Of a DNA stretch of 64,000 nucleotides, positions 24,979-53,441 are shown piece after piece; positions within the stretch are counted from its first letter, which is position 1; each line of letters begins with the position of its first letter. This stretch comes from an uncultured Polyangiales bacterium. Its GTDB lineage: Bacteria; Myxococcota_A; Polyangia; Polyangiales; GCA-016699535. The DNA lies in the NCBI GenBank assembly GCA_964640175.1, contig CAZXFW010000010.1, positions 30,638 through 94,637 of the forward strand, given 5' to 3'. The position numbers were made by a program, and so were the translations under genes. Under the pieces are notes generated by a model. The model did no database searches and was not told the origin of the DNA. It worked only from the letters and a program-made list of their open reading frames with translations.

Positions 24979-24983
24979 GGGTC

Positions 24984-25457
24984 GTGAGGTTGTTTCGAAG
25001 CACATGGTGGATGGCTATTGCTGGGTTGAGCGTACTAAGTTGTGCTCAAGGTGGATCCCCCAACCCTTCTGACGCAAGTGTTTCTAAAGACGTTATCCAT
25101 GACAGTTCTGGCTTGGATTCAGATGTTCTAGATCATGATCAAGTCGATCCCGATCCGCTCTGTGCACAAGCATGTCACGTGGTAGGCACATGTTTGACGG
25201 GTCCCACAGCATATCCTCCTCCAGGGCACAGCTCATGGGAATGTCTCGATCGTGCAGGGGGTTGTAAAGATGGCCAGTGCAAGATCTGGTGTCCCCACGA
25301 CAATACGATTGACGGTCCACAGTATACGGAGGCGTGCTATCTGGATGATGCGGAACGCAACATGAATTACGAAGATGCGTGTCGGTCGTGCTGTGAGCGC
25401 TTCGGAGCTGTGTGGAACAGCGACGGACATTACTGTGCGCCGCCACCATCTCCTTAG
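24984..25457 (+). CDS. Cys-rich lipoprotein
   Basis: Lipobox VLSC, acidic linker, many Cys. Confidence 0.65.
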   Translation: MRLFRSTWWMAIAGLSVLSCAQGGSPNPSDASVSKDVIHDSSGLDSDVLDHDQVDPDPLCAQACHVVGTCLTGPTAYPPPGHSSWECLDRAGGCKDGQCKIWCPHDNTIDGPQYTEACYLDDAERNMNYEDACRSCCERFGAVWNSDGHYCAPPPSP

Positions 25458-27520
25458 CCATTCACAACACGTTGACGCGGCGCAATCACTGGAGCCGCGC
25501 TTGGGTAGCCCAGGAAATATCCTTGGGCTTCGTCACATCCCGCATCTTTTAGGAAATCGAGTTGTTCTTGGGTTTCAACGCCTTCTCCAATGACTTCAAG
25601 TCCTAGCGCATGAGCAAGCCCAATCACGCCCTTGCATATGGCTTCTGCTTCGGCGCTTCGACCAATATCCGCTACAAACGATCGGTCAATTTTAAGTGCA
25701 TGAATAGGCAGCCGTTTAAGATACACCAATGAAGAGTAGCCGGTTCCAAAATCGTCCACTGCAATGCGTACGCCGAACTCCCCAAGCTGTTCTAAAATGC
25801 GCACGGTGGCGTCCAGGTTCGCAATCAACACGCCTTCGGTAAGCTCAAGCTCGAGTAAACAAGGATCAATGCCAGTGCGTGTAACCGCATGAATTACATG
25901 AGCTGCGAAATTAGGAGAGTCAAGTTCATGCGCTGACACATTAACTGCAATCCGTGCGCCTGCGAGTTCAGGAGTATTCCATTGGGCTTTTTGTTCGCAC
26001 GCCTCCGTGAGCACCCACTGCCCTACGCGGTGAATCATGCCTCCGCGTTCTAACAAAGGAACGAATTCATTGGGTGAGATTGAGACATCGCGGTGGTGCC
26101 ACCTTAACAACGCTTCGAAACCCACCAGCCGTTGATCTGCCAATGCATACTGCACTTGATAATCCAAGTGCAGTTCATTGCGGTCCACGGCATCTCGTAG
26201 ATTGCGTTCCATTTGTTGGCCATGCAATTCGCGTGCGTGATCTTCTGCGCTATAAAAATGGGCCGCCATGCCTCGAGTCATTTTGGCCACATGCATGGCT
26301 TGTTCTGCGCATTGAATGATATCGTCGGTGGTGTGGCCGTTGTCGGGATAAAGCGCAATGCCAATGCTCAAGGTGACGGTGTGCGCTTGAGGTCCTACCC
26401 ATACAGGTTGGGCTAGGGCAGTGCTAATCTGTTGAGTGATTTCACGTGCTTTTCGTTCGAGATTGCGTCCTTCGATGACAATGCCAAATTCGTCCGCTCC
26501 AATACGTGCAAGGCATTCGGTTTGGGAAATTGCATGTTGCATGCGGGAAGCAATGTCGCGCAGCATGCCATCGGCAACAGTATGCCCACGCTCTTCATTG
26601 ATAAGATGAAAATGATCGATGTCTATGACAAGCAATGCTGCTCCGCTTCGAGAGGTGCGCGCACGTGAAATGGCTCGATGTAGGTGATCATGGCATAGCC
26701 GACGGTTTGGGAGATTGGTCAGTTGGTCAAAGTGCACCAAACGTGCAATCCGTTGCATCATTTCCCGGCGCTCGATGGCAAATCCAATCGCTCGCCGGAG
26801 CTCGTCGCCGCTCGCGAGACTCTTAAAAAGATAATCCTGAGCGCCATTTTGCACAGCCCTTAACGCAAGCGCTTCGTCTTGAGAGCCACTGAGCACCACA
26901 ATAGGCACACCAGGGACACGTTGTTGAATAGCCATAAGCCCTGAGAGTTCATTCGCATCGGGTAATGTTAGATCCAGCAAAATGGCGGAGTACGTGTCTT
27001 GGGACAATGCAGAAAATGCATCTTGAAGGGTGTGCACGGGTACTAAACTGCCAGGCCAGCCAGAGCGCTCAAGAAGATCCGAAACAAGCTCTGCATACTC
27101 GGTATCGTCTTCTATAAAAAGCACTTTAGGTTTTTCGAGGCGAGTACGGCGGACCAAGCTCATCTCAATGCCACGATGAAGCGCTCTAGCAAGTTCTTTC
27201 GGATCCCAAGGTTTGTAGATTAGCGAGGCAATCGCTTCAGACACCAATAAGGTTGCAGGATCTTCCTCAAGTTGGTCGCTTAAAATGACAAACGTCGTGT
27301 AAGGCTGTTTTTGTTGAATGCGATGGATGAGTTCCAGTCCATGCATTTCCCGCATTCCAAAATCAACCGCCACCACCGCATAATTTTTCCTGCCGATGCA
27401 TTCAAGTGCTTCCCGAGGGCTAGATGCTGTATCAACCTCCAGTCCAAAGGAGCCTAACGCCCGAACCGCTGCGCGTAATACAAGCGGCTCGTCGTCCACG
27501 ATGAGGATGCGGGCGAGCAC
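25454..27520 (-). CDS. REC-REC-GGDEF-EAL c-di-GMP signalling protein
   Basis: ILIVDDE and VLFIEDD receivers, LLDLTLPD; RIGADEF (GGDEF variant); EALLRW, LELTE, DDFGTGYSSL, LKIDRSF. Confidence 0.93.
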   Translation of the reverse strand: MLARILIVDDEPLVLRAAVRALGSFGLEVDTASSPREALECIGRKNYAVVAVDFGMREMHGLELIHRIQQKQPYTTFVILSDQLEEDPATLLVSEAIASLIYKPWDPKELARALHRGIEMSLVRRTRLEKPKVLFIEDDTEYAELVSDLLERSGWPGSLVPVHTLQDAFSALSQDTYSAILLDLTLPDANELSGLMAIQQRVPGVPIVVLSGSQDEALALRAVQNGAQDYLFKSLASGDELRRAIGFAIERREMMQRIARLVHFDQLTNLPNRRLCHDHLHRAISRARTSRSGAALLVIDIDHFHLINEERGHTVADGMLRDIASRMQHAISQTECLARIGADEFGIVIEGRNLERKAREITQQISTALAQPVWVGPQAHTVTLSIGIALYPDNGHTTDDIIQCAEQAMHVAKMTRGMAAHFYSAEDHARELHGQQMERNLRDAVDRNELHLDYQVQYALADQRLVGFEALLRWHHRDVSISPNEFVPLLERGGMIHRVGQWVLTEACEQKAQWNTPELAGARIAVNVSAHELDSPNFAAHVIHAVTRTGIDPCLLELELTEGVLIANLDATVRILEQLGEFGVRIAVDDFGTGYSSLVYLKRLPIHALKIDRSFVADIGRSAEAEAICKGVIGLAHALGLEVIGEGVETQEQLDFLKDAGCDEAQGYFLGYPSAAPVIAPRQRVVNG

Positions 27521-27668: not shown

Positions 27669-27687
27669 GAAAATGATTGTCAGAAAC
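27669..27687 (+). promoter_or_regulatory. Putative Fur box upstream of tonB
   Basis: GAAAATGATTGTCAGAAAC, 13/19 to consensus GATAATGATAATCATTATC. Confidence 0.55.
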
Positions 27688-27715
27688 AGTAAATTGCCAA
27701 TCGCAGCAACGTGGT

Positions 27716-28462
27716 ATGTTTATGCAATCCTCCAGCCGATGGTTAAGAATGACCAGCATTTTTGGGGCTTCTCTTGGTCTTCACGCGGTGGCGTTTGCGG
27801 TGCTTTCGTTGTTGTCGGTCTCGTCGTTAAAAGCATTGGATCTCCATCCTCAGAATCTGGAAGTCGAAATTGGTTTTTTTGATACAGGTGGCTCCGGACA
27901 AGAGCCTTCTTTAGATACAGCCAAACAAACCGGTCAGCCGACAAGTGCATCAACACCTGCCAAGCCAGTTTTCACAAAGACACCAGAGAATGCAGAGCCT
28001 GAGGTTGCCACAACGTCGGTGATTGAAGCCGCACCGTCGTCCCCTGAGCCGACATCTTCTGAAGGCCAAACTGGCTCTTCAGAAGCGGCGACTGCTGCAA
28101 CTGGGGCAGCGTCTGGGAGTGGTGGTGGGCAAGGTGGAATGGGAGTGGGTCCGGGCAGCGCTCAGGGATTAGCCAGATCATGGTTGCAGGGAGTCGGCAA
28201 TCTTATTTTCTCGAATGCTGCACGTCACTATCCTGCAAAGGCACGCCAAGCCCATATCGAAGGAACAGTGGCGCTCGCGATCACCATTGATGGTCTTGGA
28301 AAGATTACTCAAGTGCAAATCAAACGTTCCTCAGGACATGATGTCTTAGATCAGGCAGCACTTGCTGCTGTCCAAGCGATTCACAGCGTGCCTGCACCTC
28401 CTGCGAGGTTACAATGGCAGCCCCGCGCGCTGACACTTCCAATTGTATACCGGCTTCATTGA
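27716..28462 (+). CDS. tonB: Energy transducer TonB
   Basis: N-terminal TM with HAV, Pro/Ser/Gly-rich spacer, C-terminal YPAKARQAHIEGTV...SSGHDVLDQAAL; start taken at ATG 27716. Confidence 0.88.
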   Translation: MFMQSSSRWLRMTSIFGASLGLHAVAFAVLSLLSVSSLKALDLHPQNLEVEIGFFDTGGSGQEPSLDTAKQTGQPTSASTPAKPVFTKTPENAEPEVATTSVIEAAPSSPEPTSSEGQTGSSEAATAATGAASGSGGGQGGMGVGPGSAQGLARSWLQGVGNLIFSNAARHYPAKARQAHIEGTVALAITIDGLGKITQVQIKRSSGHDVLDQAALAAVQAIHSVPAPPARLQWQPRALTLPIVYRLH

Positions 28463-28513
28463 CTCTCGGTCTTGACGGGTAGTAATTGCCGTGTTACGCC
28501 CCCGTTGCATTTT

Positions 28514-28532
28514 GAAAATGATTTTCATTTGC
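28514..28532 (+). promoter_or_regulatory. Putative Fur box upstream of imelysin operon
   Basis: GAAAATGATTTTCATTTGC, 14/19 to consensus, internal AATGA-N3-TCATT inverted repeat. Confidence 0.7.
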
Positions 28533-28556
28533 TAAGGGACTGCTGAAAGAGGTTGG

Positions 28557-29759
28557 ATGATGCGAGTGTGGTGGGCGCCAGGGTGTGTCGCGTTCGGAAT
28601 GCTCGCGATGGGTTGCGGTGGTTCTTCAAAATCCAATACCAATAACGATAATTTTGATAGGCCTGCCCTGATTCAAAGTTGGGCTAACGACGTTATTTTG
28701 CCGAGTTATGCAGCATTTGTAACAGACGCAATCGCATTGCGCGATGCAGTTGCTTCTTACAATGCATCGATGGCCTCTGATGCCGACGCACAAGAGCAGG
28801 CGTTGAACGAGGCGCAAGATGCATGGCGTCTTGCCATGGTTCAATGGCAGAAAAATGAAGCCCTTAGAATGGGGCCTGCAGGTTCAAGCAGTGTAACGGG
28901 TTTCAAGGGGGGCGAGGACCTTCGCGATAAAATCTATTCTTGGCCGACTGTGAGTTCCTGCCGTGTCGATCAAGAGCTTGTGTCACGCGAGTATGATGAT
29001 GACGATTTTTTTCAAAGTGAAACGGTCAACGTCTATGGAATGGCGGCTTTGGAATATCTGCTGTTCAATGAATCGTTAGAACATAGCTGCCCATCTCAAG
29101 TGGCGTTAAATGAATCGTGGGATGCCTTAAGTGAGTCTGAAATCATCCAACGCCGTGCGAAGTATGCAGAGCGTGTAGCAGGGTATGTTTTAGATGTCGC
29201 TGAAACACTGGCGGATCAGTGGAGTGCTCAAGGCGGAAATTTCGTGGAGCAATTTGTTCATCCTGGTGTGGGCGATTCGGTTTACGATGACGAGCGGTGT
29301 GTGATTGATGAAGTATTTGCTTCGATATTTTATGTTGAGTTCACCGTAAAAGATATGAAGCTTGGGATTCCTGTCGGTGTGCGCCCTGAATGCACCCAGG
29401 CGCAGTGTCCAGAAGCCGTAGAGTCGCGGTGGTCGGCACACTCCAAAGAAAACATTCTGGCGAACTATGCAGGCTTTGAGTTGGTGTTTTGGGGCAAGGA
29501 CGGCGGACTAGGGTTTGATGACTATCTTGAGGGGGTACAAGCGCAAGAACTTGAAGCACGTATCAGGCAGAGCTTTGACGCTGCAAAAGCAGCGGCCGAT
29601 GCCATTCCGGGCTCTTTGGAAGACGCGGTAGTGGAACAACATGACCTCGTGCTGGCTGCTTACACGGCGCTCAAAGGCTTAACGGACATTCTCAAGACTG
29701 AACTCGTTAGCACCTTAAGCTTAAGGGTGCCTGCGGAGGGTGCAGGTGACAACGACTAG
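28557..29759 (+). CDS. Imelysin family (peptidase M75-like) lipoprotein
   Basis: Lipobox AMGC, IYSWP, YGMAALEYLLF, acidic C-terminus GAGDND; upstream Fur-like box. Confidence 0.8.
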   Translation: MMRVWWAPGCVAFGMLAMGCGGSSKSNTNNDNFDRPALIQSWANDVILPSYAAFVTDAIALRDAVASYNASMASDADAQEQALNEAQDAWRLAMVQWQKNEALRMGPAGSSSVTGFKGGEDLRDKIYSWPTVSSCRVDQELVSREYDDDDFFQSETVNVYGMAALEYLLFNESLEHSCPSQVALNESWDALSESEIIQRRAKYAERVAGYVLDVAETLADQWSAQGGNFVEQFVHPGVGDSVYDDERCVIDEVFASIFYVEFTVKDMKLGIPVGVRPECTQAQCPEAVESRWSAHSKENILANYAGFELVFWGKDGGLGFDDYLEGVQAQELEARIRQSFDAAKAAADAIPGSLEDAVVEQHDLVLAAYTALKGLTDILKTELVSTLSLRVPAEGAGDND

Positions 29760-29766
29760 TCCATGG

Positions 29767-31146
29767 ATGGATCGGCTATTCCGACCGATAGACATCGCGT
29801 CACTCGCTTTGTTTCGGGTATTGTTTGGTGCGGTGATGTGCGCGGGGACGACGCGCTTCTTATTGTCAGGATGGGTTGACACTCTTTTTGTAGAGCCGCG
29901 GCATTTTTTGAAGTATTACGGCTTTGCGTGGGTTCAGCCTTGGCCTGAATGGGGCATGTATGTGCATTACACTGCGATGGCCGTTGCCGCGTTATTTCTC
30001 AGCATCGGACTATTCTATCGACTAAGTGCCATAGCGTTCTTCTTGTTATTCACCTATGCGCAGCTCATCGATATCAGCAACTACTTGAACCATTACTACC
30101 TTGTGGTGTTGCTTGCAGGGTTGCTTATCTTCTTGCCTGCAGACCGGGCATGGTCCGTGGATGTTTGGAGGCGTCCTGAAAAACGCGCCACAGAGGTTCC
30201 CGCATGGTGCGTTTATCTTCTGCGCTTTCAGATGGGGGTAGTGTATAGCTATGCTGCATTAGCCAAGCTCAATGCTGAGTGGCTATTGCACGCACGGCCA
30301 CTTACGTTATGGATGCGTGCACGCGTCCACATGCCGTGGATCGGAGCATGGTTGGGTGAGCAGTGGGTGGCTTACGCCATGAGTTGGGCGGGGTTTTTGT
30401 ACGACAGCCTTATCGTCGTGTTTTTGCTGATTACGCGAACACGGCCGTATGCGTATGCCGCTGTACTGTTGTTTCATGGATTGACGTGGGCGTTCTTTGA
30501 CATTGGGATGTTTCCCTTCATCATGACTACTGCCACGCTGATTTTCTTTTCTCCCAGCTGGCCTCGTTCACTTTGGTCATGGCTCATTCGACGAAAGAAT
30601 TCATACGCGTCGCACAAAGAGCCTGTGTTGGCTATGCCGAGCATACAAATGGCCACGTCAAAACGGGCAGTGACAGCGATTTTGATGGTGTATGCTGTGT
30701 TGCAAGTAGCGATCCCTTTGCGCCACTACTTATATCCGGGCGATGTGTTGTGGAATGAGCAGGGCATGCGCTTTGCATGGAAAGTTTTAGTGCGCGAAAA
30801 AAATGGCAGCGTGACGTATCACGTTCGTGAACGCCGCACAGGTCGCTATTATCAAGTGAGTCCACACGACTATCTCACCTGGGCACAGGTTTCCGAGATG
30901 TCGAGCCAGCCAGACCTTATTCTTCAACTGGCACATGACATTGCCAAAGACTTCCGCAGTAAGGGCAGGGGAGAGGTGGAAGTACGTGCAGAGGCGTGGG
31001 TTTCGTTGAACGGCCGCAAGGCAAAACTGATGTTGGATCCGACCCGTGATCTTACATTAGTACAAGATGGATTAGGGATTGCTGACTGGATAAAGCCGGG
31101 GCCCACAGATGCGTTTGGCCTTCATAGACAATGGGCAACTCGATGA
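29767..31146 (+). CDS. HTTM domain / vitamin K-dependent gamma-carboxylase-like membrane protein
   Basis: LALFRVLFG, YLNHYYL, LRFQMGVVY, AKLNAEWL, IGMFP, EQGMRFAW, QPDLILQLAH, SLNGR; start taken at ATG 29767. Confidence 0.9.
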   Translation: MDRLFRPIDIASLALFRVLFGAVMCAGTTRFLLSGWVDTLFVEPRHFLKYYGFAWVQPWPEWGMYVHYTAMAVAALFLSIGLFYRLSAIAFFLLFTYAQLIDISNYLNHYYLVVLLAGLLIFLPADRAWSVDVWRRPEKRATEVPAWCVYLLRFQMGVVYSYAALAKLNAEWLLHARPLTLWMRARVHMPWIGAWLGEQWVAYAMSWAGFLYDSLIVVFLLITRTRPYAYAAVLLFHGLTWAFFDIGMFPFIMTTATLIFFSPSWPRSLWSWLIRRKNSYASHKEPVLAMPSIQMATSKRAVTAILMVYAVLQVAIPLRHYLYPGDVLWNEQGMRFAWKVLVREKNGSVTYHVRERRTGRYYQVSPHDYLTWAQVSEMSSQPDLILQLAHDIAKDFRSKGRGEVEVRAEAWVSLNGRKAKLMLDPTRDLTLVQDGLGIADWIKPGPTDAFGLHRQWATR

Positions 31147-33389
31147 AAGCGTGGCGACTTAGCATAGGTTTGGCACTTAGCCTTGTTCCGACATTGACGC
31201 TGGCTCAAGACAAGCCTCCACAAAAACAGGCACCAAAGCAAAAGACCCAGGAAGAATTGGATTTTGAAAAATTGCTCGAAATTGATCCTGTGGTCGTGCA
31301 GAGCACGCCTATCGACACCTCACGTGTGGGTGGCTCTGCTCATGTGGTGACTAAAGAAGAACTGGAAAGATTTAATTATGACGATGTGCATCGAGTGCTC
31401 AGCCAAGTGCCAGGCGTTTATGTACGCCAAGAAGATGGATATGGATTACGTCCCAACATTGGCATGCGTGGGGTGAGTTCGGATCGCAGCAGCAAAATCA
31501 CGCTCATGGAGGACGGCGTACTATTAGGTCCTGCGCCGTATTCTGCTCCGGCGGCGTATTACTTTCCTATCATCACACGTATGGAAGGGCTTGAGGTGTT
31601 CAAAGGGCCCGCGTCGATTCAGTATGGGCCACAAACCGTGGGTGGAGCCCTTAACTGGCTTACACGGCCTATCCCTCTTACCCACACCGGTACGTTAGAC
31701 ATTGCTGCTGGGCAATACAGATCTGGGAAGTTTCATGGAAGCTGGGGGACCCGCGGCAAATATGTGGGAGCCTTAGTGGAGGGTGTTCATTTGCGCACCG
31801 ATGGATTTAAAGATCTAGACGGTGGTGGCAATACGGGCTTCGACAAGAATGAGATCTTGACCAAGTTTCAGGTTAATACCGATCTTTCTAAGTCGTCCTA
31901 TCAGATTATGGAGTTGCGGTTGGGGTATTCCGATGAACGGTCATCCGAAACCTACTCGGGACTTACTGACGCGGATTTTGCAGCCACTCCCAATCGACGG
32001 TACGTAAGCAGCTCGCTTGATTTAATGAAGTGGTACCGAACACAGGTGCAAGTCCGCCATGTGTTGCAGTGGGGAGAAGACCTTCAAGTTCGCACGACGT
32101 TTTATCGCCACGATTTTTCACGTAAGTGGCGCAAGCTTAATAGATTTCGCGGTGGACCTGGATTGCACGACCTATTGACCTATCCAACCGGGCAATCCAC
32201 GGTCTACCTCGATGTGTTACGGGGCACACAAGATTCTGAAGGTGACGCCCAAGACTTACTCATAGGGACCAATGCACGCGACTTTGTATCTCAAGGCATC
32301 CAGACGGTGGCAACCTGGCGGTATGACAACAAGTGGTTTTCGCAAGAACTTGAGTTAGGCGCACGTTTTCATAACGACTTAATCAAACGCGATCACACCG
32401 AAAAAGGCTATTGGATGCGCAATGCAACGTTAGTCTATAATCAGCTCGGAAAAGACACGATTTTGCAGAATGACGTTTCAACGTTTGCTTGGGCGTTTCA
32501 TGCGCTTGATCGCATTCAGCTTGGTGAACAGTGGTTTGTGAATCCAGGGGTTCGTCTTGAACTCATTGATTGGCATTATCGCGATACCACCGATACTACG
32601 CAGCCCGTCGATCAAAGTGATTTCTATGCTGTGGTGATTCCAGGGATAGGAGTGGTTTTCCAGCCACTTAGTTGGCTTAACTTGGTAGGCGGAATTCATC
32701 GAGGATTTAGCCCCGCAGCACCAGGGCCTGACAAGAATGTCGACTACGAGAGCAGCATAAACTATGAAGCAGGTGTACGCTTGGCGTATGCATTAAGTCG
32801 CCTTGAGGTGATAGGATTTTTAAACGATTACTCCAACCTCACAGCGATATGCTCACTTAATCGTGGTTGTTCGGAAGAGCAAGTCGATCAGCAAACCAAT
32901 GCGGGTAGGGTGCACGTGTATGGTGTGGAGACCAGTGTTGAACAGAAAGTAAATCTGCCACTGCATTTGGTAGGCCTTGGGCGCCTGGCCTATACGTTGA
33001 CGCTTTCAGAATTTCAAGAAGCGTTTGAAAGCTCAGACCCGTTATTGGGCGATGTGAATGTAGGCGATGCATTACCTTACGTTCCAGTGCATCAGGGCAC
33101 GCTCATTTTGGGCGTGCAGCATAAAATGTTTGATGTCAGTGTATCGACAGCGTATGTGGGTGAAATGCGAGATGTAGCCGGGCAAGGTGATATTCCAGAC
33201 CCAGAGCGCATCGCAGACTATATTGCTGTGGACTTTGCCGGTTCGGTGCAAGTGAGCAAGACCGATCAACTCTACGTTCACATCGACAACGTATTAAACA
33301 ACGAATACATGGTCTCACGGCGGCCCTATGGCGCACGGCCAGGGATGCCGTTTCAATTTATGGTGGGCTACAAAGGTACGTTTCAGTAG
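31143..33389 (+). CDS. TonB-dependent receptor (FecA-like)
   Basis: Plug LSQVPGVY...RPNIGMRG, LMEDGV, EVFKGPASIQYG; C-terminal DNVLNNEY and aromatic end; ATGA overlap with HTTM stop. Confidence 0.92.
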   Translation: MKAWRLSIGLALSLVPTLTLAQDKPPQKQAPKQKTQEELDFEKLLEIDPVVVQSTPIDTSRVGGSAHVVTKEELERFNYDDVHRVLSQVPGVYVRQEDGYGLRPNIGMRGVSSDRSSKITLMEDGVLLGPAPYSAPAAYYFPIITRMEGLEVFKGPASIQYGPQTVGGALNWLTRPIPLTHTGTLDIAAGQYRSGKFHGSWGTRGKYVGALVEGVHLRTDGFKDLDGGGNTGFDKNEILTKFQVNTDLSKSSYQIMELRLGYSDERSSETYSGLTDADFAATPNRRYVSSSLDLMKWYRTQVQVRHVLQWGEDLQVRTTFYRHDFSRKWRKLNRFRGGPGLHDLLTYPTGQSTVYLDVLRGTQDSEGDAQDLLIGTNARDFVSQGIQTVATWRYDNKWFSQELELGARFHNDLIKRDHTEKGYWMRNATLVYNQLGKDTILQNDVSTFAWAFHALDRIQLGEQWFVNPGVRLELIDWHYRDTTDTTQPVDQSDFYAVVIPGIGVVFQPLSWLNLVGGIHRGFSPAAPGPDKNVDYESSINYEAGVRLAYALSRLEVIGFLNDYSNLTAICSLNRGCSEEQVDQQTNAGRVHVYGVETSVEQKVNLPLHLVGLGRLAYTLTLSEFQEAFESSDPLLGDVNVGDALPYVPVHQGTLILGVQHKMFDVSVSTAYVGEMRDVAGQGDIPDPERIADYIAVDFAGSVQVSKTDQLYVHIDNVLNNEYMVSRRPYGARPGMPFQFMVGYKGTFQ

Positions 33390-33445: not shown

Positions 33446-34603
33446 ATGCAGTTTTCTTCGGAGCTTCTGTTATTAGCGCCGTATTGGCTAGTGATGCGGA
33501 GTAAGGCTAGCTTTAGCGCGGTAGACTTGCGCGGGCTTGGTCGGATCGATGTCGAAGGAAAGCTTGCTGAGCAGATGCTTCAACGATCCCAGGATATGTC
33601 CTGGATCGATTCAGTCATTACACTGCACAATCCATTGTATCGAGAATTTTTCCAGGCAATGCAGCAGGCTGAGCTTCGGCCGATGAACACACGTGCTGAA
33701 CTCTTACGTGGCATGGGATTTGAGCGATTGTTTTTGGAATTGACAGCACAGTGCAATGAGCAATGTGAACATTGTTATGCAGAGTCAACTCCTTTGCGCA
33801 AGGAATCCTTGAGAGAAGACACAGTGTATGCGCTGTTAGCTGATGCCAAGGCGTTGGGATTTAGATCGGTGCAACTCACTGGGGGAGATCCCTTGATCAG
33901 TAATTGTTGTGTCCCAGCGGTGCGCTATGCAGCAGAGTTGGGTTTTGCATTCATTGAAATCTATACCAACGGACTAGCATTGCGTGGGGCTCTCTATGCT
34001 GACATCAAAGAGTTTCCTGTGAGTTTTGCGTTTTCTTTTTATTCGAACGATGCCGCTGTGCACGATGCGATCACACGTACTCACGGTAGTCACCAACGCA
34101 CTTTGGCTGCGATAGCGCTTTGTCAAAACGATGGTATCCCATTTCGGGTGGGCATCATTGCCATGTCATCGAATATCCAGGATGTAGATTCCACTGTGAA
34201 TTTTTTAACTGACCGTGGCGTCCCTGCAGACGCCATTGGCATCGATGTGGCGAGGAGTGTAGGTCGAGGCCTTTTTTCGTTGCGTTCGAAATCCGGAGTT
34301 TCATCTGGCAAACAAATGGCATCAGCTCAACACAATCCAAAGCATGAACGTTCTTTTGGGGGGTCGATCGCAGTTTCTTATGACGGTAATGTATATCCTT
34401 GTGTTTTTAGTAGAAAAAATGTGTTAGGGAATATTTATCAGCAGTCATTGCGGGATATTATAGAGGATCCTATGCCAGTGCATACAGACCAGCTCGACAT
34501 GGGACGTGCTCATGCAGAATGGTCTTCCCAGCTTTCCTGTTGGGAATGCCGAGCACGTGCTGCATTATTACTGCCGTCTACAAGAAGTTCTTGTCATGTT
34601 TAA
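33446..34603 (+). CDS. Radical SAM enzyme with reduced SPASM/Twitch-like C-terminal domain (peptide maturase type)
   Basis: CNEQCEHCY (CxxxCxxC), LTGGDP, YTNG, DGNVYPC...LGNI, distal CWEC; start ATG 33446 (ORF track GTG 33419). Confidence 0.88.
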   Translation: MQFSSELLLLAPYWLVMRSKASFSAVDLRGLGRIDVEGKLAEQMLQRSQDMSWIDSVITLHNPLYREFFQAMQQAELRPMNTRAELLRGMGFERLFLELTAQCNEQCEHCYAESTPLRKESLREDTVYALLADAKALGFRSVQLTGGDPLISNCCVPAVRYAAELGFAFIEIYTNGLALRGALYADIKEFPVSFAFSFYSNDAAVHDAITRTHGSHQRTLAAIALCQNDGIPFRVGIIAMSSNIQDVDSTVNFLTDRGVPADAIGIDVARSVGRGLFSLRSKSGVSSGKQMASAQHNPKHERSFGGSIAVSYDGNVYPCVFSRKNVLGNIYQQSLRDIIEDPMPVHTDQLDMGRAHAEWSSQLSCWECRARAALLLPSTRSSCHV

Positions 34604-34892
34604 TGCTACGCAGACAGTGGGTTCTTTGCTTAGAGTACCCAAAAGACAAAGCACTGTGGTACACAAGCTTGCCGAGGAGCAGACGGTATTGGTTGATGAA
34701 GAAGGCTCCCATTTGTTTTTACTTAACGAGATGGGAACGATTGTGTGGCATCTGATGGATGGCCATCGCAATGTGATCGATATCGTCAAGGAAATCGTGT
34801 CTGTGCTTTCTGTTTCTGAGGAACAGGTGTCGCGTGATGTCCAGGAATTTTTAGGGCAGCTTGAGGAAAAACGCCTCGTTTCCCTAGACTGA
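34596..34892 (+). CDS. Stand-alone PqqD family RiPP recognition element (RRE)
   Basis: 98 aa, LFLLNEMGTIVWHLMDG...IVKEI...VSRDVQEFLGQLEEKRLV matches the PqqD winged-helix pattern; overlaps rSAM stop. Confidence 0.88.
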   Translation: MFNATQTVGSLLRVPKRQSTVVHKLAEEQTVLVDEEGSHLFLLNEMGTIVWHLMDGHRNVIDIVKEIVSVLSVSEEQVSRDVQEFLGQLEEKRLVSLD

Positions 34893-34896
34893 TTGC

Positions 34897-35742
34897 ATGC
34901 GTAGTGTGTTTTATTTTCTGCATCACGAAGTTTCTGTTGATGCTGATTTGCCGCAGGTGCATCAGGGTCTGGACTTGATATGGCGGCAATGCAAACGACC
35001 TGTCCTGAATGTTTTTTCAACTGTGCACTATGACGTGCACGCCCTCAACGGGTATCATTTGCAATGTGGGAAAAAGCATCTTGCAACATTTCACGATGTC
35101 GAGGACATCGTGCCCATGCTTGAATTGCAGGTATATTCAGCGCTTAGAGCACAGTCTGTCCCAGGTGAACTCACGATGCATGCGGCTGCGGTATCGTATG
35201 AAGACCATGTGATTATTTTTACAGGGCCTTCTTCTGCAGGAAAATCGTCGTTGGCCTTGGCTGCGGTGCGGCAAGGATGGTCTTACATTAGTGATGAAAT
35301 CGTCAGTGCTAATTGTAAGCATGTATGGGGGATTCCGCGTTCGATCGGCTTTGATAAACAAACGCCTGTGACAGCTTCATGGTTAGTGGCACAGGATTTG
35401 GTGCAACGACATGTCGTGCTCCAGACTGGGCTATTAAGTGCAATGCCGTTGTATCTGCCAACGGATGAGCAAGTTCCGCTATTGCCACCGTCTGCTCGGA
35501 ATGTATGGATTATGTTGATTCGACAAGGACCCCGCAATTTTCTAGTGCCGTGCCCAGCATGGAAGGCTTTGCAGGGCATCTATGCTGCCGCTTTTCAGAA
35601 ACCCGATACGAATTTGGGGTGGCTTATTCAGCCTGGGCGGACATGGGAGTTAGGTTGGAGTAACCCTGACGAAGCATTCGCTTTACTTAGGCGTAACGTT
35701 CATCTCTCGGTTGAGCGCGGTACGAGCACTGCATGGGGGTAA
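34897..35742 (+). CDS. HPr-kinase-like P-loop kinase
   Basis: MHAAAV, FTGPSSAGKSSL (Walker A), WSYISDE. Confidence 0.82.
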   Translation: MRSVFYFLHHEVSVDADLPQVHQGLDLIWRQCKRPVLNVFSTVHYDVHALNGYHLQCGKKHLATFHDVEDIVPMLELQVYSALRAQSVPGELTMHAAAVSYEDHVIIFTGPSSAGKSSLALAAVRQGWSYISDEIVSANCKHVWGIPRSIGFDKQTPVTASWLVAQDLVQRHVVLQTGLLSAMPLYLPTDEQVPLLPPSARNVWIMLIRQGPRNFLVPCPAWKALQGIYAAAFQKPDTNLGWLIQPGRTWELGWSNPDEAFALLRRNVHLSVERGTSTAWG

Positions 35743-36572
35743 GGGGGCTCTTGTTGACAGTATGCGATTTCATATCCGGCTTGTGCAACGATGCCTTCAA
35801 ATTCTGATGGAGTGAAGCAGTGCACAAACCCCTCATGAGTAGTATAATAATCGCTTTCAGGAGCTGTATTAACTCCTAGACGTTTTAAGATGTTTCGCAC
35901 TTGCAACTGCCCGCGAGAAGGGCCGCGTGCAACCCAGCTGATAAGTAAGGGTCCTGATCCACAGAGTTGATGGAAAATTTTCAAAACAGCCGTTCGCTCG
36001 GATGGCGTTGCAATGTGCGCAAAGCTTCCAAATCCCACAATACCTGCTGCAAACGGAGCATGCGTTTGAAGTGGCGCTAGTCCCTGAATAAAAGTTGTGT
36101 AGTCCGCTGTTAAACAACAAAGCAACTTCGAATGAGGCACATGATGTTGACACAGCGATACTAATTCTTTTGCAGGATCAAACCCAGCAACCTGGTATCC
36201 GAGTGTGGCCAAAGCGTACATTTCGCGCCCGGTGCCGCAGGCGCCGACAAGCACCCGAGCAGGTGGAGGTACAAAATAGTTACGGATGCAGCTTACTTCC
36301 CAGTCGTAGAGGCTTCGGTTGTATGCCTCGTTGTGATAGCCCGTGTTCGTGTTATAGGCGTGTGTATTCAGCCTTGGCCAGTCCTCTGGGCTTGAGCTAT
36401 TCATGATAATTTCTGTGCGAATTGCATTCGCACAGGCGGAAAGCCGATGTAATGCCCATTGTGTGCCTTGGGCTAAAGCTTGAGGTGTTTTGTGAAGTTT
36501 TTTATACAACGTGTTTCGATTTTTTGAGATATACTGCGCGGGTTCGGTTCGTGGGTGTCTTATGGTTGACAA
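35700..36572 (-). CDS. Class I SAM-dependent methyltransferase (start uncertain, possibly TTG 36509)
   Basis: RVLVGACGTGRE motif I, VAGFDPAKELV acidic motif II, GFGSFAHI. Confidence 0.8.
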   Translation of the reverse strand: MSTIRHPRTEPAQYISKNRNTLYKKLHKTPQALAQGTQWALHRLSACANAIRTEIIMNSSSPEDWPRLNTHAYNTNTGYHNEAYNRSLYDWEVSCIRNYFVPPPARVLVGACGTGREMYALATLGYQVAGFDPAKELVSLCQHHVPHSKLLCCLTADYTTFIQGLAPLQTHAPFAAGIVGFGSFAHIATPSERTAVLKIFHQLCGSGPLLISWVARGPSRGQLQVRNILKRLGVNTAPESDYYTTHEGFVHCFTPSEFEGIVAQAGYEIAYCQQEPPYPHAVLVPRSTER

Positions 36573-36819
36573 TAAACCAGACCAGTCTCCTTCGCCATCC
36601 GTCTCAGAGACAATCTCTATGCAAAAAGACGATGGAAGTTATCACATTGCGCGCCGTACTCTTTTGCGGATTGCAGTATATACGGCACCCGCAATTGTGG
36701 GTTCAATGGTGGTGACGAGCCATGCGTCCGCGCAAGTCTCATGCATGCCAATCACCTGTATGCCGGTGACCTGCATGCCAGCGACGTGCATGCCCGTGAC
36801 TTGCATGCCAAATCGTTAG
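36562..36819 (+). CDS. Putative RiPP precursor peptide, 85 aa, with five Cys-Met-Pro repeats
   Basis: MVDNK...RRTLLRIAVYTAPAIVGSMVVTSHASA-QVSCMPITCMPVTCMPATCMPVTCMPNR; repeats differ mostly at synonymous positions; next to RRE/rSAM/kinase/MTase. Confidence 0.8.
   Translation: MVDNKPDQSPSPSVSETISMQKDDGSYHIARRTLLRIAVYTAPAIVGSMVVTSHASAQVSCMPITCMPVTCMPATCMPVTCMPNR
36739..36813 (+). repeat. Five tandem 15-bp coding repeats (S/T-C-M-P-x)
   Basis: tcatgcatgccaatc acctgtatgccggtg acctgcatgccagcg acgtgcatgcccgtg acttgcatgccaaat. Confidence 0.95.
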
Positions 36820-39418: not shown

Positions 39419-39688
39419 ACAAAACCTCGAGCGTCAAGTCAGCGTATACGTATGCGTTGGTGCGAATAGTGCTGTCATTCAAGTGGGGATTGTCCCCACA
39501 GTCTAAATTGTTCGAACCCAACGCCAAACGCAGTAGCTTGAGCCCGATGAGCAGCGAGGGTCCTCTAATGGGTCTGTGATCTTCTCGTCGTCGGAGCAGG
39601 CACAGATCATCAACGTGAGAAGCACAATTCGTATTCGGCTGCAAAGAGCGGTAGTCCTCTTCGGGCACCATAAGCGTACTGGTGCCAT
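39417..39688 (-). pseudogene. Probable frameshifted, truncated paralog of the upstream Cys-rich lipoprotein
   Basis: One frame gives VLLTLMICACSDDEK...RCSSGSSYC then stop at 39503; a second frame continues LGSNNLDCG, resembling the repeat LQSDAAHCG of the neighbour. Confidence 0.4.
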
Positions 39689-41526
39689 CACCATGATCGT
39701 CTGCGCCAGATGAAGGCTTCGTCGGGAGTAGAAGGGGCACTCAACAACTTTTTCTGTCCTGCGACATAGACGGTCTTGTTTGCGTCGGTCCACATATGGG
39801 TTGCCTCATAACGGTAATTATTTAACTGGCTTATGGTGGGACTTTCGTTGGTCCACGTGGCGCCGCCATTGCTGCTATGGAATAACATGTTGTCGTTCCA
39901 TCCCCTCCCGCCGGCGAATAGATGTTGTCCAGCCGCAGCGACTGCATTCAACACTACGTCGTCCACCTGCCAAAGGGTTATCCATGTCGCGCCACGGTTG
40001 GTGGAACGCCACACATAGCTGCGGAAGTAGGGTTGCGTATCACGCAGCTCGAATCCAACAATAATCAATGCCCCATCTGTATTTACTTCCAACGAAGAAG
40101 TAGACCAACAAAGCTTATTATTTGGCAGACTGCATGCCTTGGCGCCTTTCGTCCATGGGCCGTCACGGTCGGGGGATGCATAGACAAGGCTGTTGTGTTC
40201 AAGAAAGAATCCACCCTGCCTGTCCTCACGAATGGTACTAAATCCTCCACTGTTATCGGTTTCACTCGCAACGACAGAATACGTCCACTCACACGCGTCA
40301 TCGGATTGGTTGGGGTGCCAAAGGATGCCCCGGTTTGGGTCAACTGTGTCTCCCACCACATACGAATTGTAATCTGACGAAGCCCAAATGCTTCGTATAG
40401 TCCCCCACGCATTGCCTGCATTCAATGTCCATTGACCGTGAGGCGCTCCCCATTGGTAGAGGCCAAGTTTATCATTCTGAAAACCAGCCCAGGTCCACTG
40501 AATATCGTACTTATCGCGAGGCAACACGAATAGGGCGTACGCAGGAGAGTCCAGCCAGGCGCTGGGGCGCCCACTTACTGCCGACACGATAAAATACCGA
40601 CTTGTATTATTTGTCTGGCGGAACGTGGCACCTACAAGCACATCTCCCTTACTCACGTCGCGGCCATGCAGGGCGGTAATCTCCGTGTAAACTCCTGTTA
40701 GGCCTGTGGGTGCACGGAGGGGAACATTTTGCCATAGTGGTTCGCATTTAGTGCCCACCTTGACGTATCCCTGGTAACAGGCAAACCCACAGTCGGTTCC
40801 GTCGCAGGTGGCATACCCGTTGGCGGGTACCGCGCATGGCGTGCAGCGCGTGCCACACGAGGCGACGGAAGTATTGGATAGGCATTGGGCAGGGGTTCCA
40901 CACGCGTGATAGCCACTAAAGCATGCGATGCCGCACGATCCTGCTTGGCATTGTGCAGAGCCGTTTTGTGGTATGGAACACGCGGTCTCACAATCACCAC
41001 AATGGGCAGCATCTGATTGCAAATTCGTGCAAGAGCTTCCACACAAATCACCCGTGGGTGATGTGCACGTATCGATGCATTGCGGAGTTTCGGATGCTTC
41101 ACATAGCGGGGTAGGGTTTTCACACGCTGTGTCGCAGTCACCGCAGTGTTCAGCTTCCATCAACGAAACTTCACAACCGTTGCTGGTCTCGCCATCGCAG
41201 TTGCCATATCTGCTCTGGCAGACAAGTGTGCATGAGCCCTCGGCGCATGTAGTGGCTTGAGGATCTGCATTGGGCAGATTGCGGCAGTCGTTATGACACG
41301 CTCCGCAATGTTCGGTGGAGTCATCCAAGTTGGCGCAAAACCCGTCGCAAAATGTCATGCCCGAGTCGCACTCAGGTTCTTCCGGCGGCGGAAGCGTGTC
41401 GGGCACAGGAAGGCCACCGTCTTCGGTAGGTTCTGGGACGCCTTGATGGTCTTCCGAACAAGCAACACACATTATGAATAGGGCTATTGAAATGATCCGA
41501 ACGTGTAGGTGCTTAGGGTTATACAT
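39688..41526 (-). CDS. Lipoprotein with Stigma1-like Cys-rich repeats and C-terminal Asp-box beta-propeller-like domain
   Basis: Lipobox CVAC after start at ATG 41526; repeats such as CANLDDSTEHCGACHNDC; Asp-box-like RSTNRGATW, HSSNGGATW. Confidence 0.8.
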   Translation of the reverse strand: MYNPKHLHVRIISIALFIMCVACSEDHQGVPEPTEDGGLPVPDTLPPPEEPECDSGMTFCDGFCANLDDSTEHCGACHNDCRNLPNADPQATTCAEGSCTLVCQSRYGNCDGETSNGCEVSLMEAEHCGDCDTACENPTPLCEASETPQCIDTCTSPTGDLCGSSCTNLQSDAAHCGDCETACSIPQNGSAQCQAGSCGIACFSGYHACGTPAQCLSNTSVASCGTRCTPCAVPANGYATCDGTDCGFACYQGYVKVGTKCEPLWQNVPLRAPTGLTGVYTEITALHGRDVSKGDVLVGATFRQTNNTSRYFIVSAVSGRPSAWLDSPAYALFVLPRDKYDIQWTWAGFQNDKLGLYQWGAPHGQWTLNAGNAWGTIRSIWASSDYNSYVVGDTVDPNRGILWHPNQSDDACEWTYSVVASETDNSGGFSTIREDRQGGFFLEHNSLVYASPDRDGPWTKGAKACSLPNNKLCWSTSSLEVNTDGALIIVGFELRDTQPYFRSYVWRSTNRGATWITLWQVDDVVLNAVAAAGQHLFAGGRGWNDNMLFHSSNGGATWTNESPTISQLNNYRYEATHMWTDANKTVYVAGQKKLLSAPSTPDEAFIWRRRSW

Positions 41527-41558
41527 AGGTTTAAAGGGCCTTTCTGTGAGTAGCTCCA

Positions 41559-43121
41559 TCAGTTGCACTGTGCATGTTTGACGATTCCATCGAAACTGTG
41601 TTGCATGTCTTGAAAAATCATGTGGGCATTGCCTTGGCCATCCAGTGCAAGGGCGGCATCGAGGGTTACATCGGCTGTGCCGGATGCCAACGTGGTTTGC
41701 CATTGACCGTGTTTGTTGGTGGCATAATGAAGGTCACTGTTGGCGATGTATGCAAGATGCACGGCGTCGTTGGCATCGATCGCGATGTCCGCCGCGCCAG
41801 AATGTAATGCATCGATGCTGTCGATTTTTGTGATCACCCAACTTCCAGTTGTGTTGGTGGCGTAGTTGATGGTTTCTTCGGATAGATTCAAAAAGCTCAT
41901 GTGCAGAAACCCTTCTGAGTCGACTGCCAAGTTGACTGGATTGGTATCGTATTCAGGCGCTAGCCGGCTTGAGGTTTTTTCGAGCACCGGCGTTTCTGAC
42001 CAGATATTGCTTTCTTTGAACATGACGCCTAAATTCCAACCTTCGGAAAATCGGTTGGTGGCGTGTGCGATGTACGTGGTGCCTTGGTATCGCACTAGAT
42101 CTGCTGACCATGGGTTGTGATCGGCAGGAATTGTTTCGGAAGTCCAGACGCCAGTGGCGTTCGTGACGAGCTCGAACGTATCGAAGGGCTCTTCGGGCGG
42201 CCTCTCGCGCGTATAAGTAAGGTACACGCCTGTGTCGTCCACGGCGATGTCACATGACGGTTTGTTGGTGTAGGCTCGGGGCCCTACGACGTGTGCGCTC
42301 CAGCCGAGTTTATTAGTCAGGTACGCTATCGGATATAGTTGGTTGACGTCTTCGACCTGATAACACGCATGGACGTAGCCCTCGGCGTCCAGGGCAAGGT
42401 CAATGTAAAAGAGCGCGCCTTGGGGAATACCCGGGATGAGTTGGTGCGACCATGCTGCAGTGCCCGTTTTGGTGGCGTAGTGCATTTGGGTGTTAAGAGG
42501 AGGCACTATTTCTGTATAAAGGGCAACAAGCGTGTCTCCGTATGCTGCAATCGCCACGCCGTCGCCTGTAGAAGGTGTATCGTCAATGACGGTGGAGGTG
42601 CACTCGAGAGCTGGGAGAGCTGGCGGCGTTAATGGTTCCGGCTCAGTGTCGGTAGAAGAAGAGGTTGGTGGTTTCGGTTCGCCCACGAAGAGTATGCCGC
42701 TTCGCACCAACGTGGCAGTGAATTTCATGCCGGAAGCCTGGCCACCTCGCGACTCAAAGGGGGCATCGATGTTTGGCGCGGTATACAATGCGGTCTTGTC
42801 TGTGACATGGCTGACCTGCAAGGTGACCGATGCAGGGGTGGCTGGATCAAAGGTCACATCCGGCACAATTTCATACATCGCCGAATAGCCAATGAACCCT
42901 TCTGGAATGGGCGCGTTGATGCGACGCAAATAGATGCGGACAGGCGTCGGATGTTGAAGGGAATCCGGTGGAATCGTGATTTCGCCGTCTTCAAGGCGCA
43001 ATGTTCCGCCCTTAGCCGGAACGATGATGTCGGAGGTTTCTGTAAGCGGCGGGTTGCCGGTTTCAGTTCCGTTACAGGCGAACACGGTAAGAATGATACA
43101 TAGCGATAGGAATGGTTTCAT
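41559..43121 (-). CDS. Lipoprotein with GTETGNP N-terminus, ZU5-like domain and beta-propeller-like repeats
   Basis: Lipobox FAC then NGTETGNPP; KGGTLRLEDGEITIPPDSL; repeated LxVDxxGxxHxxY...YATNxxGxW. Confidence 0.78.
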   Translation of the reverse strand: MKPFLSLCIILTVFACNGTETGNPPLTETSDIIVPAKGGTLRLEDGEITIPPDSLQHPTPVRIYLRRINAPIPEGFIGYSAMYEIVPDVTFDPATPASVTLQVSHVTDKTALYTAPNIDAPFESRGGQASGMKFTATLVRSGILFVGEPKPPTSSSTDTEPEPLTPPALPALECTSTVIDDTPSTGDGVAIAAYGDTLVALYTEIVPPLNTQMHYATKTGTAAWSHQLIPGIPQGALFYIDLALDAEGYVHACYQVEDVNQLYPIAYLTNKLGWSAHVVGPRAYTNKPSCDIAVDDTGVYLTYTRERPPEEPFDTFELVTNATGVWTSETIPADHNPWSADLVRYQGTTYIAHATNRFSEGWNLGVMFKESNIWSETPVLEKTSSRLAPEYDTNPVNLAVDSEGFLHMSFLNLSEETINYATNTTGSWVITKIDSIDALHSGAADIAIDANDAVHLAYIANSDLHYATNKHGQWQTTLASGTADVTLDAALALDGQGNAHMIFQDMQHSFDGIVKHAQCN

Positions 43122-53079: not shown

Positions 53080-53441
53080 TGGTGGAGGCGCTGGGAGTCG
53101 AACCCAGGTCCGAAAGCAATCCGCGATGGCTTCTACATGTGTAGTCTGTAGTTTGATGTCGCTATGAAGCACGCCCACAGACAGGCTTGCTTTTTAGCCA
53201 GTAGCTCTAACGCTTCGCCAACTTCCCAAGCTACGAGGATTAGGCTAGCCAGTTCGGTTACGCCTCCCTGAGAGTACTGACAGACTCTTCAGTTCAACGG
53301 CTCTTTTGGCTTAATTAGGCCGCGAGAGCGAGTTCTGCATCATTGTTTGCAGTTGTGTTTCCCCGAGGTATTTACGTCGTATCGAGGACCGACGACACGC
53401 CACCAGCACTTCAACACCCCCGTCGAAGCCGGAACGCCCCC
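53080..53441 (-). ncRNA. ssrA: tmRNA; tag peptide ANNDAELALAA (53350-53315)
   Basis: 5' GGGGGCG...GGCTTCGAC pairs with 3' CGCCTCC-ACCA, T-loop GGTTCGACTCC, internal tag ending ALAA-stop; 362 nt. Confidence 0.96.

Follow-up and report, generated by a model that had tools for sequence, protein, structure and literature searches.

What does a short open reading frame (ORF) ending in a string of Cys-Met-Pro units encode, when its neighbours are genes for a radical S-adenosylmethionine (rSAM) enzyme, a PqqD-type domain, a kinase resembling HPr kinase (HPrK) and a methyltransferase? The question is raised by a 64-kb stretch of contig CAZXFW010000010.1 from an uncultured Polyangiales bacterium (64,000 nucleotides, hereafter the window), in which a preliminary description, made from the letters alone, had proposed a system for a ribosomally synthesised and post-translationally modified peptide (RiPP). 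The answer developed here is that these genes form a conserved operon whose product is a ribosomal peptide that is modified after translation and exported, a reading to which we give a probability of about 60% and in which all of the chemistry is proposed from resemblance to other systems. ORF listing and domain scans recovered the five genes at the predicted coordinates (Table 1), and the layout is as had been described: the gene for the PqqD-type RiPP recognition element (RRE) overlaps the rSAM gene by 8 bp, the kinase gene begins 4 bp after it, the methyltransferase gene is convergent with the kinase gene (their ends overlap by 43 bp), and the small ORF, divergent from the methyltransferase gene, carries five Cys-Met-Pro units at its C-terminal end (HASAQVSCMPITCMPVTCMPATCMPVTCMPNR / SCMPITCMPVTCMPATCMPVTCMPNR).

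The evidence that the small ORF is a precursor is comparative. A word-index search with the precursor itself gave no matches, and its homologues were recovered by reading the DNA upstream of enzyme homologues. Specifically, a word-index search with the kinase returned only 21 homologues of about 35% identity, on contigs where rSAM, PqqD and kinase genes are followed by a weakly matching methyltransferase gene and a convergent gene of the NTP_transf_5 family; the DNA directly 5′ of the rSAM genes of these relatives encodes peptides such as ELDRARRHFLRATAYMAPAILATITLNKAHAQASCMPATCMPGACMPTTCMPNTCMPIGG, homologous to the ORF of the window. A kinase-profile scan of the GTDB species genomes gave 18 operon loci, with a recognisable precursor in 17 (L021 is masked) and the order precursor-rSAM-PqqD-kinase in all 18 where readable, and an independent precursor-profile scan of JGI metagenomes added 35 further loci. 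Homologous precursors were thus found in 52 loci (39 distinct peptides with 38 distinct cores), nearly all in metagenome-assembled genomes of Myxococcota; the labels in the kinase scan are Myxococcales, Polyangiales, Sandaracinaceae, ‘delta proteobacterium’, one unlabelled bin and one Coxiellaceae bin. The window, with a GC content of about 49%, holds the most divergent member of the family (identity to the relatives is 45% for the rSAM enzyme, 38% for PqqD and about 35% for the kinase). The proposal of a RiPP-type system with the small ORF as its precursor is therefore strengthened, since the ORF is conserved beside the enzymes in about 50 loci; the co-occurring precursor, RRE, rSAM and kinase sets for which a search in Myxococcota had been suggested were found by both the kinase-centred and the precursor-centred scan, and the association did not break down on comparison.

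The precursor lies directly before the rSAM gene wherever downstream sequence exists, with L058 as the sole exception, and the layout is unchanged in the divergent rSAM clades L067-L069 (44-47% identical to the window enzyme), where it is also immediately upstream. The minimal conserved gene set consists of precursor, rSAM, PqqD and kinase, the rSAM gene being the most constant partner of the precursor, and in several lineages the cluster stands as a single copy amid housekeeping genes. In L058 (1-600) the PqqD gene directly follows the precursor and no rSAM gene lies between them, possibly through deletion, rearrangement or an assembly artefact. In L001 (6272-7661) the precursor frame is fused into an rSAM gene that is itself split into two ORFs, the core ASCMPATCPPGVCGPNAPCVPDAPRAC continuing into the rSAM frame with no stop; the core of L061 starts similarly. 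The fusion in L001 could reflect a frameshift, gene decay or a sequencing error. L008 (contig CAXMND010000008.1), binned as ‘Coxiellaceae’, has a precursor identical to that of L002/L045 (contig PVMK01188981), and the bin is probably mis-assigned.

At the codon level, the variable columns in the leader block of 27 codons number 12, 8 and 25 at first, second and third positions, so that third positions vary most; pairwise codon differences are synonymous in 5540 cases and non-synonymous in 2032; and the Cys-x-Pro units use both Cys codons and all four Pro codons. These three patterns indicate selection at the protein level. The Cys-Met-Pro repeat of the window is also a tandem array at the DNA level (period 15 bp, 4.6 copies by Tandem Repeats Finder, TRF). 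Judged from its sequence conservation, the small ORF is a genuine precursor. Its start is likely the ATG at 36619, giving 66 residues, because MQKDDGSY at the N-terminus of the window peptide corresponds to MKDDVGD in the family. Neither NCBIfam (June 2026) nor Pfam contains a model for the precursor.

In the family alignment the invariant columns are A-R-R, L, Y-x-A-P, A-x-A-Q and S-C-x-P plus four further C-x-P units, and the window peptide keeps every one of them. All Cys residues of every core sit in C-x-P units, of which there are four to six per core. The repeat unit had been described as CMPxT, which the comparison revises: the position between Cys and Pro is usually taken by Met (94) or Asn (66), neither Met nor Thr is conserved, and the invariant part is Cys-x-Pro alone. 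In 38/38 distinct cores the first Cys is preceded by a Ser, the only invariant hydroxyl residue; as cores start with Q-(A/V/P)-S-C, it is residue 3 (4 in some members). Two further modifications were considered and rejected, namely phosphorylation of a Thr in each repeat, because Thr varies, and the formation of lanthionine via phospho-Ser/Thr, for the same reason and in the absence of a lyase or cyclase gene.

The leader suggests how the peptide could leave the cell. Its consensus consists of ARRHFLK, an uncharged stretch of about 16 residues and NKAHA followed by Gln. Twin-arginine signals follow the consensus S/T-R-R-x-F-L-K, with an uncharged h-region at least 13 residues long and an AxA site for cleavage, and by inspection the leader appears to have the classical pattern of a signal for twin-arginine translocation (Tat). 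No protease or transporter gene was called in the window cluster or in any related locus, an absence that Tat export combined with signal peptidase I would explain. We infer that the modified peptide is probably exported by Tat, with ARRxFLK, the uncharged stretch and A-x-A before Gln as its signal, and that signal peptidase I would then free a peptide of 26-40 residues starting with Gln, which may cyclise to pyroglutamate.

The use of a general secretion signal instead of a dedicated protease and exporter recalls the bufferins, which are MNIO-modified periplasmic Cu-binding RiPPs with a Sec signal (PMC11626156). In both systems Cys residues appear to be the modified or functional ones and the periplasm is the likely destination, but bufferins combine the Sec signal with MNIO and DUF2063 enzymes, whereas a Tat-type leader, an rSAM enzyme and a kinase are found here; MNIO (DUF692), DUF2063 and the DUF2282/BUF_6/12Cys precursor domains were all absent from the neighbourhood of the cluster in the window. 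The likeness raises the possibility that the product is a periplasmic buffer for a metal such as Cu(I), or a metallophore, perhaps handled in the window by the adjacent genes for TonB, imelysin, an HTTM protein and a TonB-dependent receptor. This would be compatible with a modified and exported peptide, and fits cores rich in Cys and Met, an export signal on the precursor as in the Sec-routed bufferins (PMC11626156), the single-copy cluster amid housekeeping genes in several lineages and a receptor gene that ends 57 bp upstream on the same strand. Since no other locus has the TonB-receptor neighbourhood, Asn often takes the place of Met, and thioether formation would remove the thiolate ligands, we nevertheless regard a metal-binding role as rather unlikely.

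As to how the enzymes are brought to the core, the RRE is informative. Its best NCBIfam matches are lasso PqqD chaperones, below their cut-offs, and the family PqqD profile matches, among PDB entries and in this order, TbiB1 (9e-9), LppB (9x8z; 7e-7), PqqD, PbaB1 and TfuB1. In the crystal structure of LppB with its leader, N33 secures the kink at Pro, D70 forms a hydrogen bond to the Tyr hydroxyl, the Pro is sandwiched by F74 and M78 lines the second pocket (PMC13381572); the family-invariant N44, D81, F85 and L89 align with these four residues, with Leu in place of Met. The matching element on the peptide would be the invariant Y-x-A-P-x-I/V motif embedded in the hydrophobic stretch of the leader, its Tyr 17 residues before the A-x-A site in most relatives and 18 in the window. 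With cleavage after A-x-A, Tyr, Pro and Ile fall at -17, -14 and -12, and one position farther out in the window, against Y-16, P-13 and V-11 in the LppA leader (PMC13381572), so that the motif appears to stand in lasso/LPP register. Because the RRE keeps the Asn, Asp and Phe with which LppB contacts its leader, there is good indirect evidence that it recognises the Tyr-containing YxxP leader in the lasso/LPP mode, and it would thereby present the core to the enzymes. What the system has in common with lasso peptides proper is limited to the B1-type RRE and the YxxP leader. As the preliminary description had noted for the window, genes for a lasso cyclase (the Asn-synthetase-like protein C), the transglutaminase-like B2 protease, LanB/C/M and YcaO are missing within about 10 kb of the cluster, and none was found in the related loci either. 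A second RRE in the N-terminus of the rSAM enzyme was also considered; the comparison of its profile with that of the PqqD family was negative (probability 0.3), although the topology of the AlphaFold2 (AF2) model and full-length Foldseek alignments to SkfB and SuiB are still compatible with one.

The kinase matches HprK_rel_A (E 2.5e-10, with 39.9 bits where the cut-off is 200), as well as HprK_rel_B and Hpr_kinase_C (E 1.3e-4). HprK_rel_A ranks first in all members of the kinase family (34-49 bits against the same cut-off of 200) and HprK_rel_B next, while homologues also give a faint match to PF27840 (ScmC). The P-loop GPSSAGKSS is present in the window kinase, and the Walker A motif FxGPSxAGKSSLALA is invariant in the family. 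Foldseek matches of the AF2 model are exclusively ATP-dependent phosphoenolpyruvate carboxykinase (PEPCK) and HPr kinase/phosphorylase (HPrK/P), which have one common fold; as the model is poor, with a confidence score (pLDDT) of 56, they would place the enzyme at the superfamily level only. In the LPP system the kinase LppK adds one to four phosphates on Ser3 of a core beginning AQS (Popov et al. 2026, PMC13381572). By this parallel the invariant Ser that precedes the first Cys, at core position 3 or 4, would be the likeliest phospho-acceptor, and we infer that the kinase phosphorylates it as LppK does.

The parallel with LPP extends further, and gives rise to another explanation of the locus. 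Bacillota LPP clusters are defined by an RRE, a kinase resembling HprK, an NTP transferase, an SpI-type peptidase and an exporter (Popov et al. 2026, PMC13381572). The LPP/paeninodin module has the same discrete lasso-type RRE and HprK-like kinase, its NTP_transf_5-type transferase recurring here in most relatives only; both systems have the leader motif Y-x-x-P-x-V/I, a Ser some 19-20 residues after the Tyr that is core residue 3, and a signal-peptidase-type cleavage site (predicted here), and the RRE keeps the LppB contacts listed above. Of the full LPP leader motif, YxxPxVLxHQxIxFETxxS, only YxAPx[IV] and a Ser at similar spacing recur and the remainder differs; the SpI-like (SipW-type) peptidase and MsbA-like exporter are absent from the window and from all related loci; the hosts are Myxococcota and not Bacillota; and, unlike LPP, the system includes an rSAM enzyme, often a methyltransferase, a twin-arginine leader motif and a core of Cys-x-Pro repeats. 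Taken at face value, the module could make an LPP-like phosphopeptide, in which the Ser is (poly)phosphorylated and in most relatives extended by NTP_transf_5, the Cys residues serve as thiols, disulfides or metal ligands, and the rSAM enzyme carries out epimerisation or modification of Pro, Met or Asn. The joint presence of RRE, kinase and NTP transferase, the invariant Ser at the LPP phosphorylation site, NTP_transf_5 in most loci and the epimerase EpeE among the Foldseek matches of the rSAM enzyme all fit. This explanation is nonetheless unlikely, as no other gene accompanies the precursor as constantly as the rSAM gene, NTP_transf_5 is absent from the window, L005, L067 and L069, and every Cys lies in a strictly conserved C-x-P, suggesting enzyme recognition at Cys.

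What the rSAM enzyme does at these Cys residues is the central element of the thioether chemistry that we favour. The enzyme reaches 54.5 bits for Pfam Radical_SAM and 35.9 bits for SPASM (above the SPASM cut-off), has the motif CNEQCEHC (CX3CX2C) and is 41-55% identical to more than 120 homologue clusters. Its invariant Cys residues are C103/C107/C110 together with C319, C365 and C368 (in GxxYPC and CWEC), C155 being conserved at 90%. Because only three C-terminal Cys residues are invariant, at most one auxiliary cluster should be held, and the domain can be read as a Twitch-like abbreviated SPASM domain with one possible auxiliary cluster; the earlier assignment to rSAM/SPASM enzymes is thus kept as regards the Pfam match and narrowed as regards the domain. 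Sequence matches in the PDB are BlsE, SkfB and PqqE. The AF2 model is good (pLDDT 84), with SkfB as its best Foldseek match (1.6e-12), followed by SuiB, CteB, BlsE and an anaerobic sulfatase-maturing enzyme (anSME). No curated NCBIfam family was reached (StsB 69.8 vs 625, AlbA 48.5 vs 850 and SkfB 43.7 vs 300 bits).

A close comparison is with sactipeptides and ranthipeptides (SkfB, CteB, AlbA, PapB), which likewise have an RRE-guided rSAM enzyme with an auxiliary-cluster domain and a Cys-rich core; two of their maturases, SkfB and CteB, rank with the best structural matches. The short repeated Cys spacing seen here resembles that of freyrasin with its six C-x3-D rings. The system differs from them in scores far below the cut-offs of the curated models, a discrete lasso-type RRE, a kinase, an export-like leader and the lack of a conserved acceptor. 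Three features, a core rich in Cys, a fold like that of SkfB and CteB and a cluster that may have an open coordination site, would make a thioether at every C-x-P unit the most economical reading: the enzyme, with its single auxiliary cluster, may act once per Cys-x-Pro, most likely forming an intramolecular Cys thioether and hence four to six small rings. The ‘polycyclic thioether’ of the preliminary description should be taken as a proposal in the same sense, because it is drawn from enzyme resemblance.

Another fate for the same residues would be anSME-like chemistry, in which the rSAM enzyme oxidises each C-x-P Cys to C-alpha-formylglycine or another Cys-beta-oxidised product. Anaerobic sulfatase-maturing enzymes act on C/S-x-P-x-R, and sulfatases are modified before export, as the peptide would be; the invariant Cys-x-Pro spacing resembles that motif, and anSMEcpe is among the top Foldseek matches (E 3e-10). 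We consider such chemistry improbable, as anSME families are not among the best 25 NCBIfam matches, the full 7-Cys SPASM motif with two clusters is absent, there is no Arg at +4, and SkfB, SuiB and CteB rank higher in Foldseek. That the locus does not encode a RiPP at all, the enzymes acting on a sugar or polysaccharide and the small ORF being an untranslated tandem repeat, is hardly credible: the gene for a short-chain dehydrogenase/reductase (SDR) sugar epimerase/dehydratase that adjoins the ORF, and on which the preliminary description had kept this alternative open, stands beside the cluster in no other locus, so that the argument from it is weakened, and, although LPP clusters do sit in capsule loci (PMC13381572), the comparative data contradict the idea through the coding-type conservation of the ORF and its strict linkage to the rSAM gene.

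Several observations weigh against the exported thioether peptide that we prefer. With respect to the cross-links, no thioether acceptor is conserved, the positions after Pro vary and include Gly, and every C-x-P unit could be accommodated only by an S-C-alpha link or by one to Pro. With respect to phosphorylation, the kinase matches lie far below the family cut-offs, and its structural model is the poor one mentioned above. With respect to export, models for Tat signals are the top matches for family members but stay below cut-off (TIGR01409, 13.4 vs 16.7; PF10518, 13.3 vs 22.7), the window leader with its RRTLLR variant does not match them, and tatA and tatC occur near the cluster in two loci only, 4-6 kb upstream (L069 508-1718 and L021 1163-2346); the proximity of tat genes was accordingly not used as evidence for Tat export. 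Finally, L028 and L029, which contain the nearest rSAM relatives (55% identity), lack a recognisable precursor on their contigs of 6-8 kb. The layout of L028 (1-8235) and L029 is that of the window (rSAM-PqqD-kinase and a convergent methyltransferase gene), with a rhodanese gene upstream and a phosphoenolpyruvate carboxylase gene downstream.

Partial likenesses exist to two systems that Haft described in silico, the SynChlorMet cassette (ScmC/D/E/F) and the HPr-rel-A system (TIGR04352), which also pair a PqqD homologue with an HPrK-related or ScmC-like protein, SynChlorMet having rSAM/SPASM enzymes as well. Scores here are far below the cut-offs (33.3 vs 100 bits for ScmD, 46.9 vs 400 for ScmF and 39.9 vs 200 for HprK_rel_A), there is a single rSAM enzyme, and here a precursor has been identified. 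Text matches to ScmC in the literature were unrelated acronyms. A literature search on the gene combination, on Tat-signal RiPPs and on Myxococcota rSAM RiPPs found no description. The gene set is apparently undescribed, in agreement with the preliminary description, as neither a curated family nor a paper was found that covers it, and from its sequences the system is best summarised as a RiPP that depends on an rSAM enzyme, with a phosphorylation module like that of LPP and a leader of Tat type. The leader resembling a twin-arginine/A-x-A signal, the YxxP motif, the NTP_transf_5 partner and the parallel with the LPP/paeninodin module (PMC13381572) are features that lay outside the first reading of the locus.

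A bolder extension, possible but doubtful, is that this is the first Tat-routed RiPP family, in which a single segment is both a twin-arginine signal and a leader of the lasso (YxxP) type. Besides bringing in the rSAM enzyme and the kinase, the RRE would keep the signal shielded until the peptide is fully modified, much as Tat proofreading chaperones do, and Tat, unlike Sec, could export the cross-linked and phosphorylated peptide; the product might be a new scaffold that defines a class, in which a phospho-Ser is followed by a ladder of four to six thioether rings templated by Cys-x-Pro, perhaps with a periplasmic role in metal or redox handling. If the model preferred here holds, it would (i) join rSAM cross-linking with the RRE/HprK-kinase phosphorylation module, so far reported only from Bacillota lasso/LPP clusters, (ii) extend the idea of a RiPP with a general secretion signal from Sec (the bufferins) to Tat, thereby solving the export of a pre-cyclised peptide, a difficulty pointed out for Sec-routed RiPPs (PMC11626156), and (iii) make Cys-x-Pro the simple repeated recognition element of an uncharacterised rSAM enzyme, an attraction to enzymologists and peptide engineers. 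Across uncultured Myxococcota of marine and soil origin the family is widespread, amid housekeeping genes, which hints at a physiological role (metal/redox handling or the envelope) over that of a strain-specific antibiotic.

The methyltransferase, which would add a methyl group to the peptide, gives weak class-I matches (Methyltransf_25/11 and TPMT, and a daptide methyltransferase at E 4e-5), and upstream its ORF reaches as far as a TTG at 36572. In the relatives a homologue is encoded after the kinase (27% identity, E 6e-22; 50% to that of L028). The methyltransferase is accessory and not universal, being absent from L005 and L067-L069. As regards NTP_transf_5, a tblastn search found none in the whole window.

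Table 1. Coordinates of the cluster and of the precursor features in the window
Feature	Position	Strand	Basis
rSAM enzyme, abbreviated SPASM (Twitch-like) C-terminal domain and ~90-aa N-terminal domain	33446..34603	+	Pfam Radical_SAM, SPASM
Alternative GTG start of the rSAM gene	33419	+	GTG codon
Discrete PqqD-family RRE, lasso-B1/LppB type	34596..34892	+	PF05402, 62.7 bits
HPrK/PEPCK-superfamily P-loop kinase	34897..35742	+	HprK_rel_A, HprK_rel_B and Hpr_kinase_C, below threshold
Class-I SAM methyltransferase, accessory	35700..36404	-	Weak Methyltransf_25/11 and TPMT matches
Precursor peptide, 66 aa: MQKDDGSYHIARRTLLRIAVYTAPAIVGSMVVTSHASA before and QVSCMPITCMPVTCMPATCMPVTCMPNR after the cleavage mark	36619..36819	+	ORF and family alignment
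Twin-arginine-type motif ARRTLLR	36649..36669	+	Family consensus ARRHFLK; ARR and L invariant
YTAPAI, candidate Y-x-x-P-x-I/V RRE-recognition motif	36679..36696	+	Y, A and P invariant in alignment
A-S-A, predicted signal-peptidase-type cleavage site, then invariant Gln	36724..36732	+	A-x-A-Q invariant; cleavage predicted
Ser41 (core residue 3), candidate phosphorylation site	36739..36741	+	Sole invariant hydroxyl residue
Five Cys-Met-Pro units, 5-residue spacing, candidate rSAM targets	36742..36810	+	TRF

Upstream of the rSAM gene lies a co-directional block (27677-33389, + strand) for TonB (PF03544), imelysin (PF09375), an HTTM/vitamin-K-carboxylase-like protein (PF05090 and PF22777) and the TonB-dependent receptor, which looks like a metal or iron uptake operon. 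These four genes and that of the SDR epimerase were considered as cluster members and rejected, since they recur beside the cluster in no other locus. Signals for promoters and terminators were no more frequent than in shuffled sequence, a further point against the preferred reading. Further upstream (22708-27520) lie genes for a Ser/Thr protein kinase (Pkinase) and for a response-regulator-GGDEF-EAL protein, as is typical of signalling-rich, Myxococcota-like genomes. Beyond the cluster, a Cys-rich protein of 671 aa whose N-terminal half has many CxxC-like spacings (39688-41703, - strand) and a neighbouring ORF of 520 aa (41559-43121) are both without a Pfam match, and a transfer-messenger RNA (tmRNA) gene at 53080-53441 (- strand) encodes the tag peptide ANNDAELALAA.

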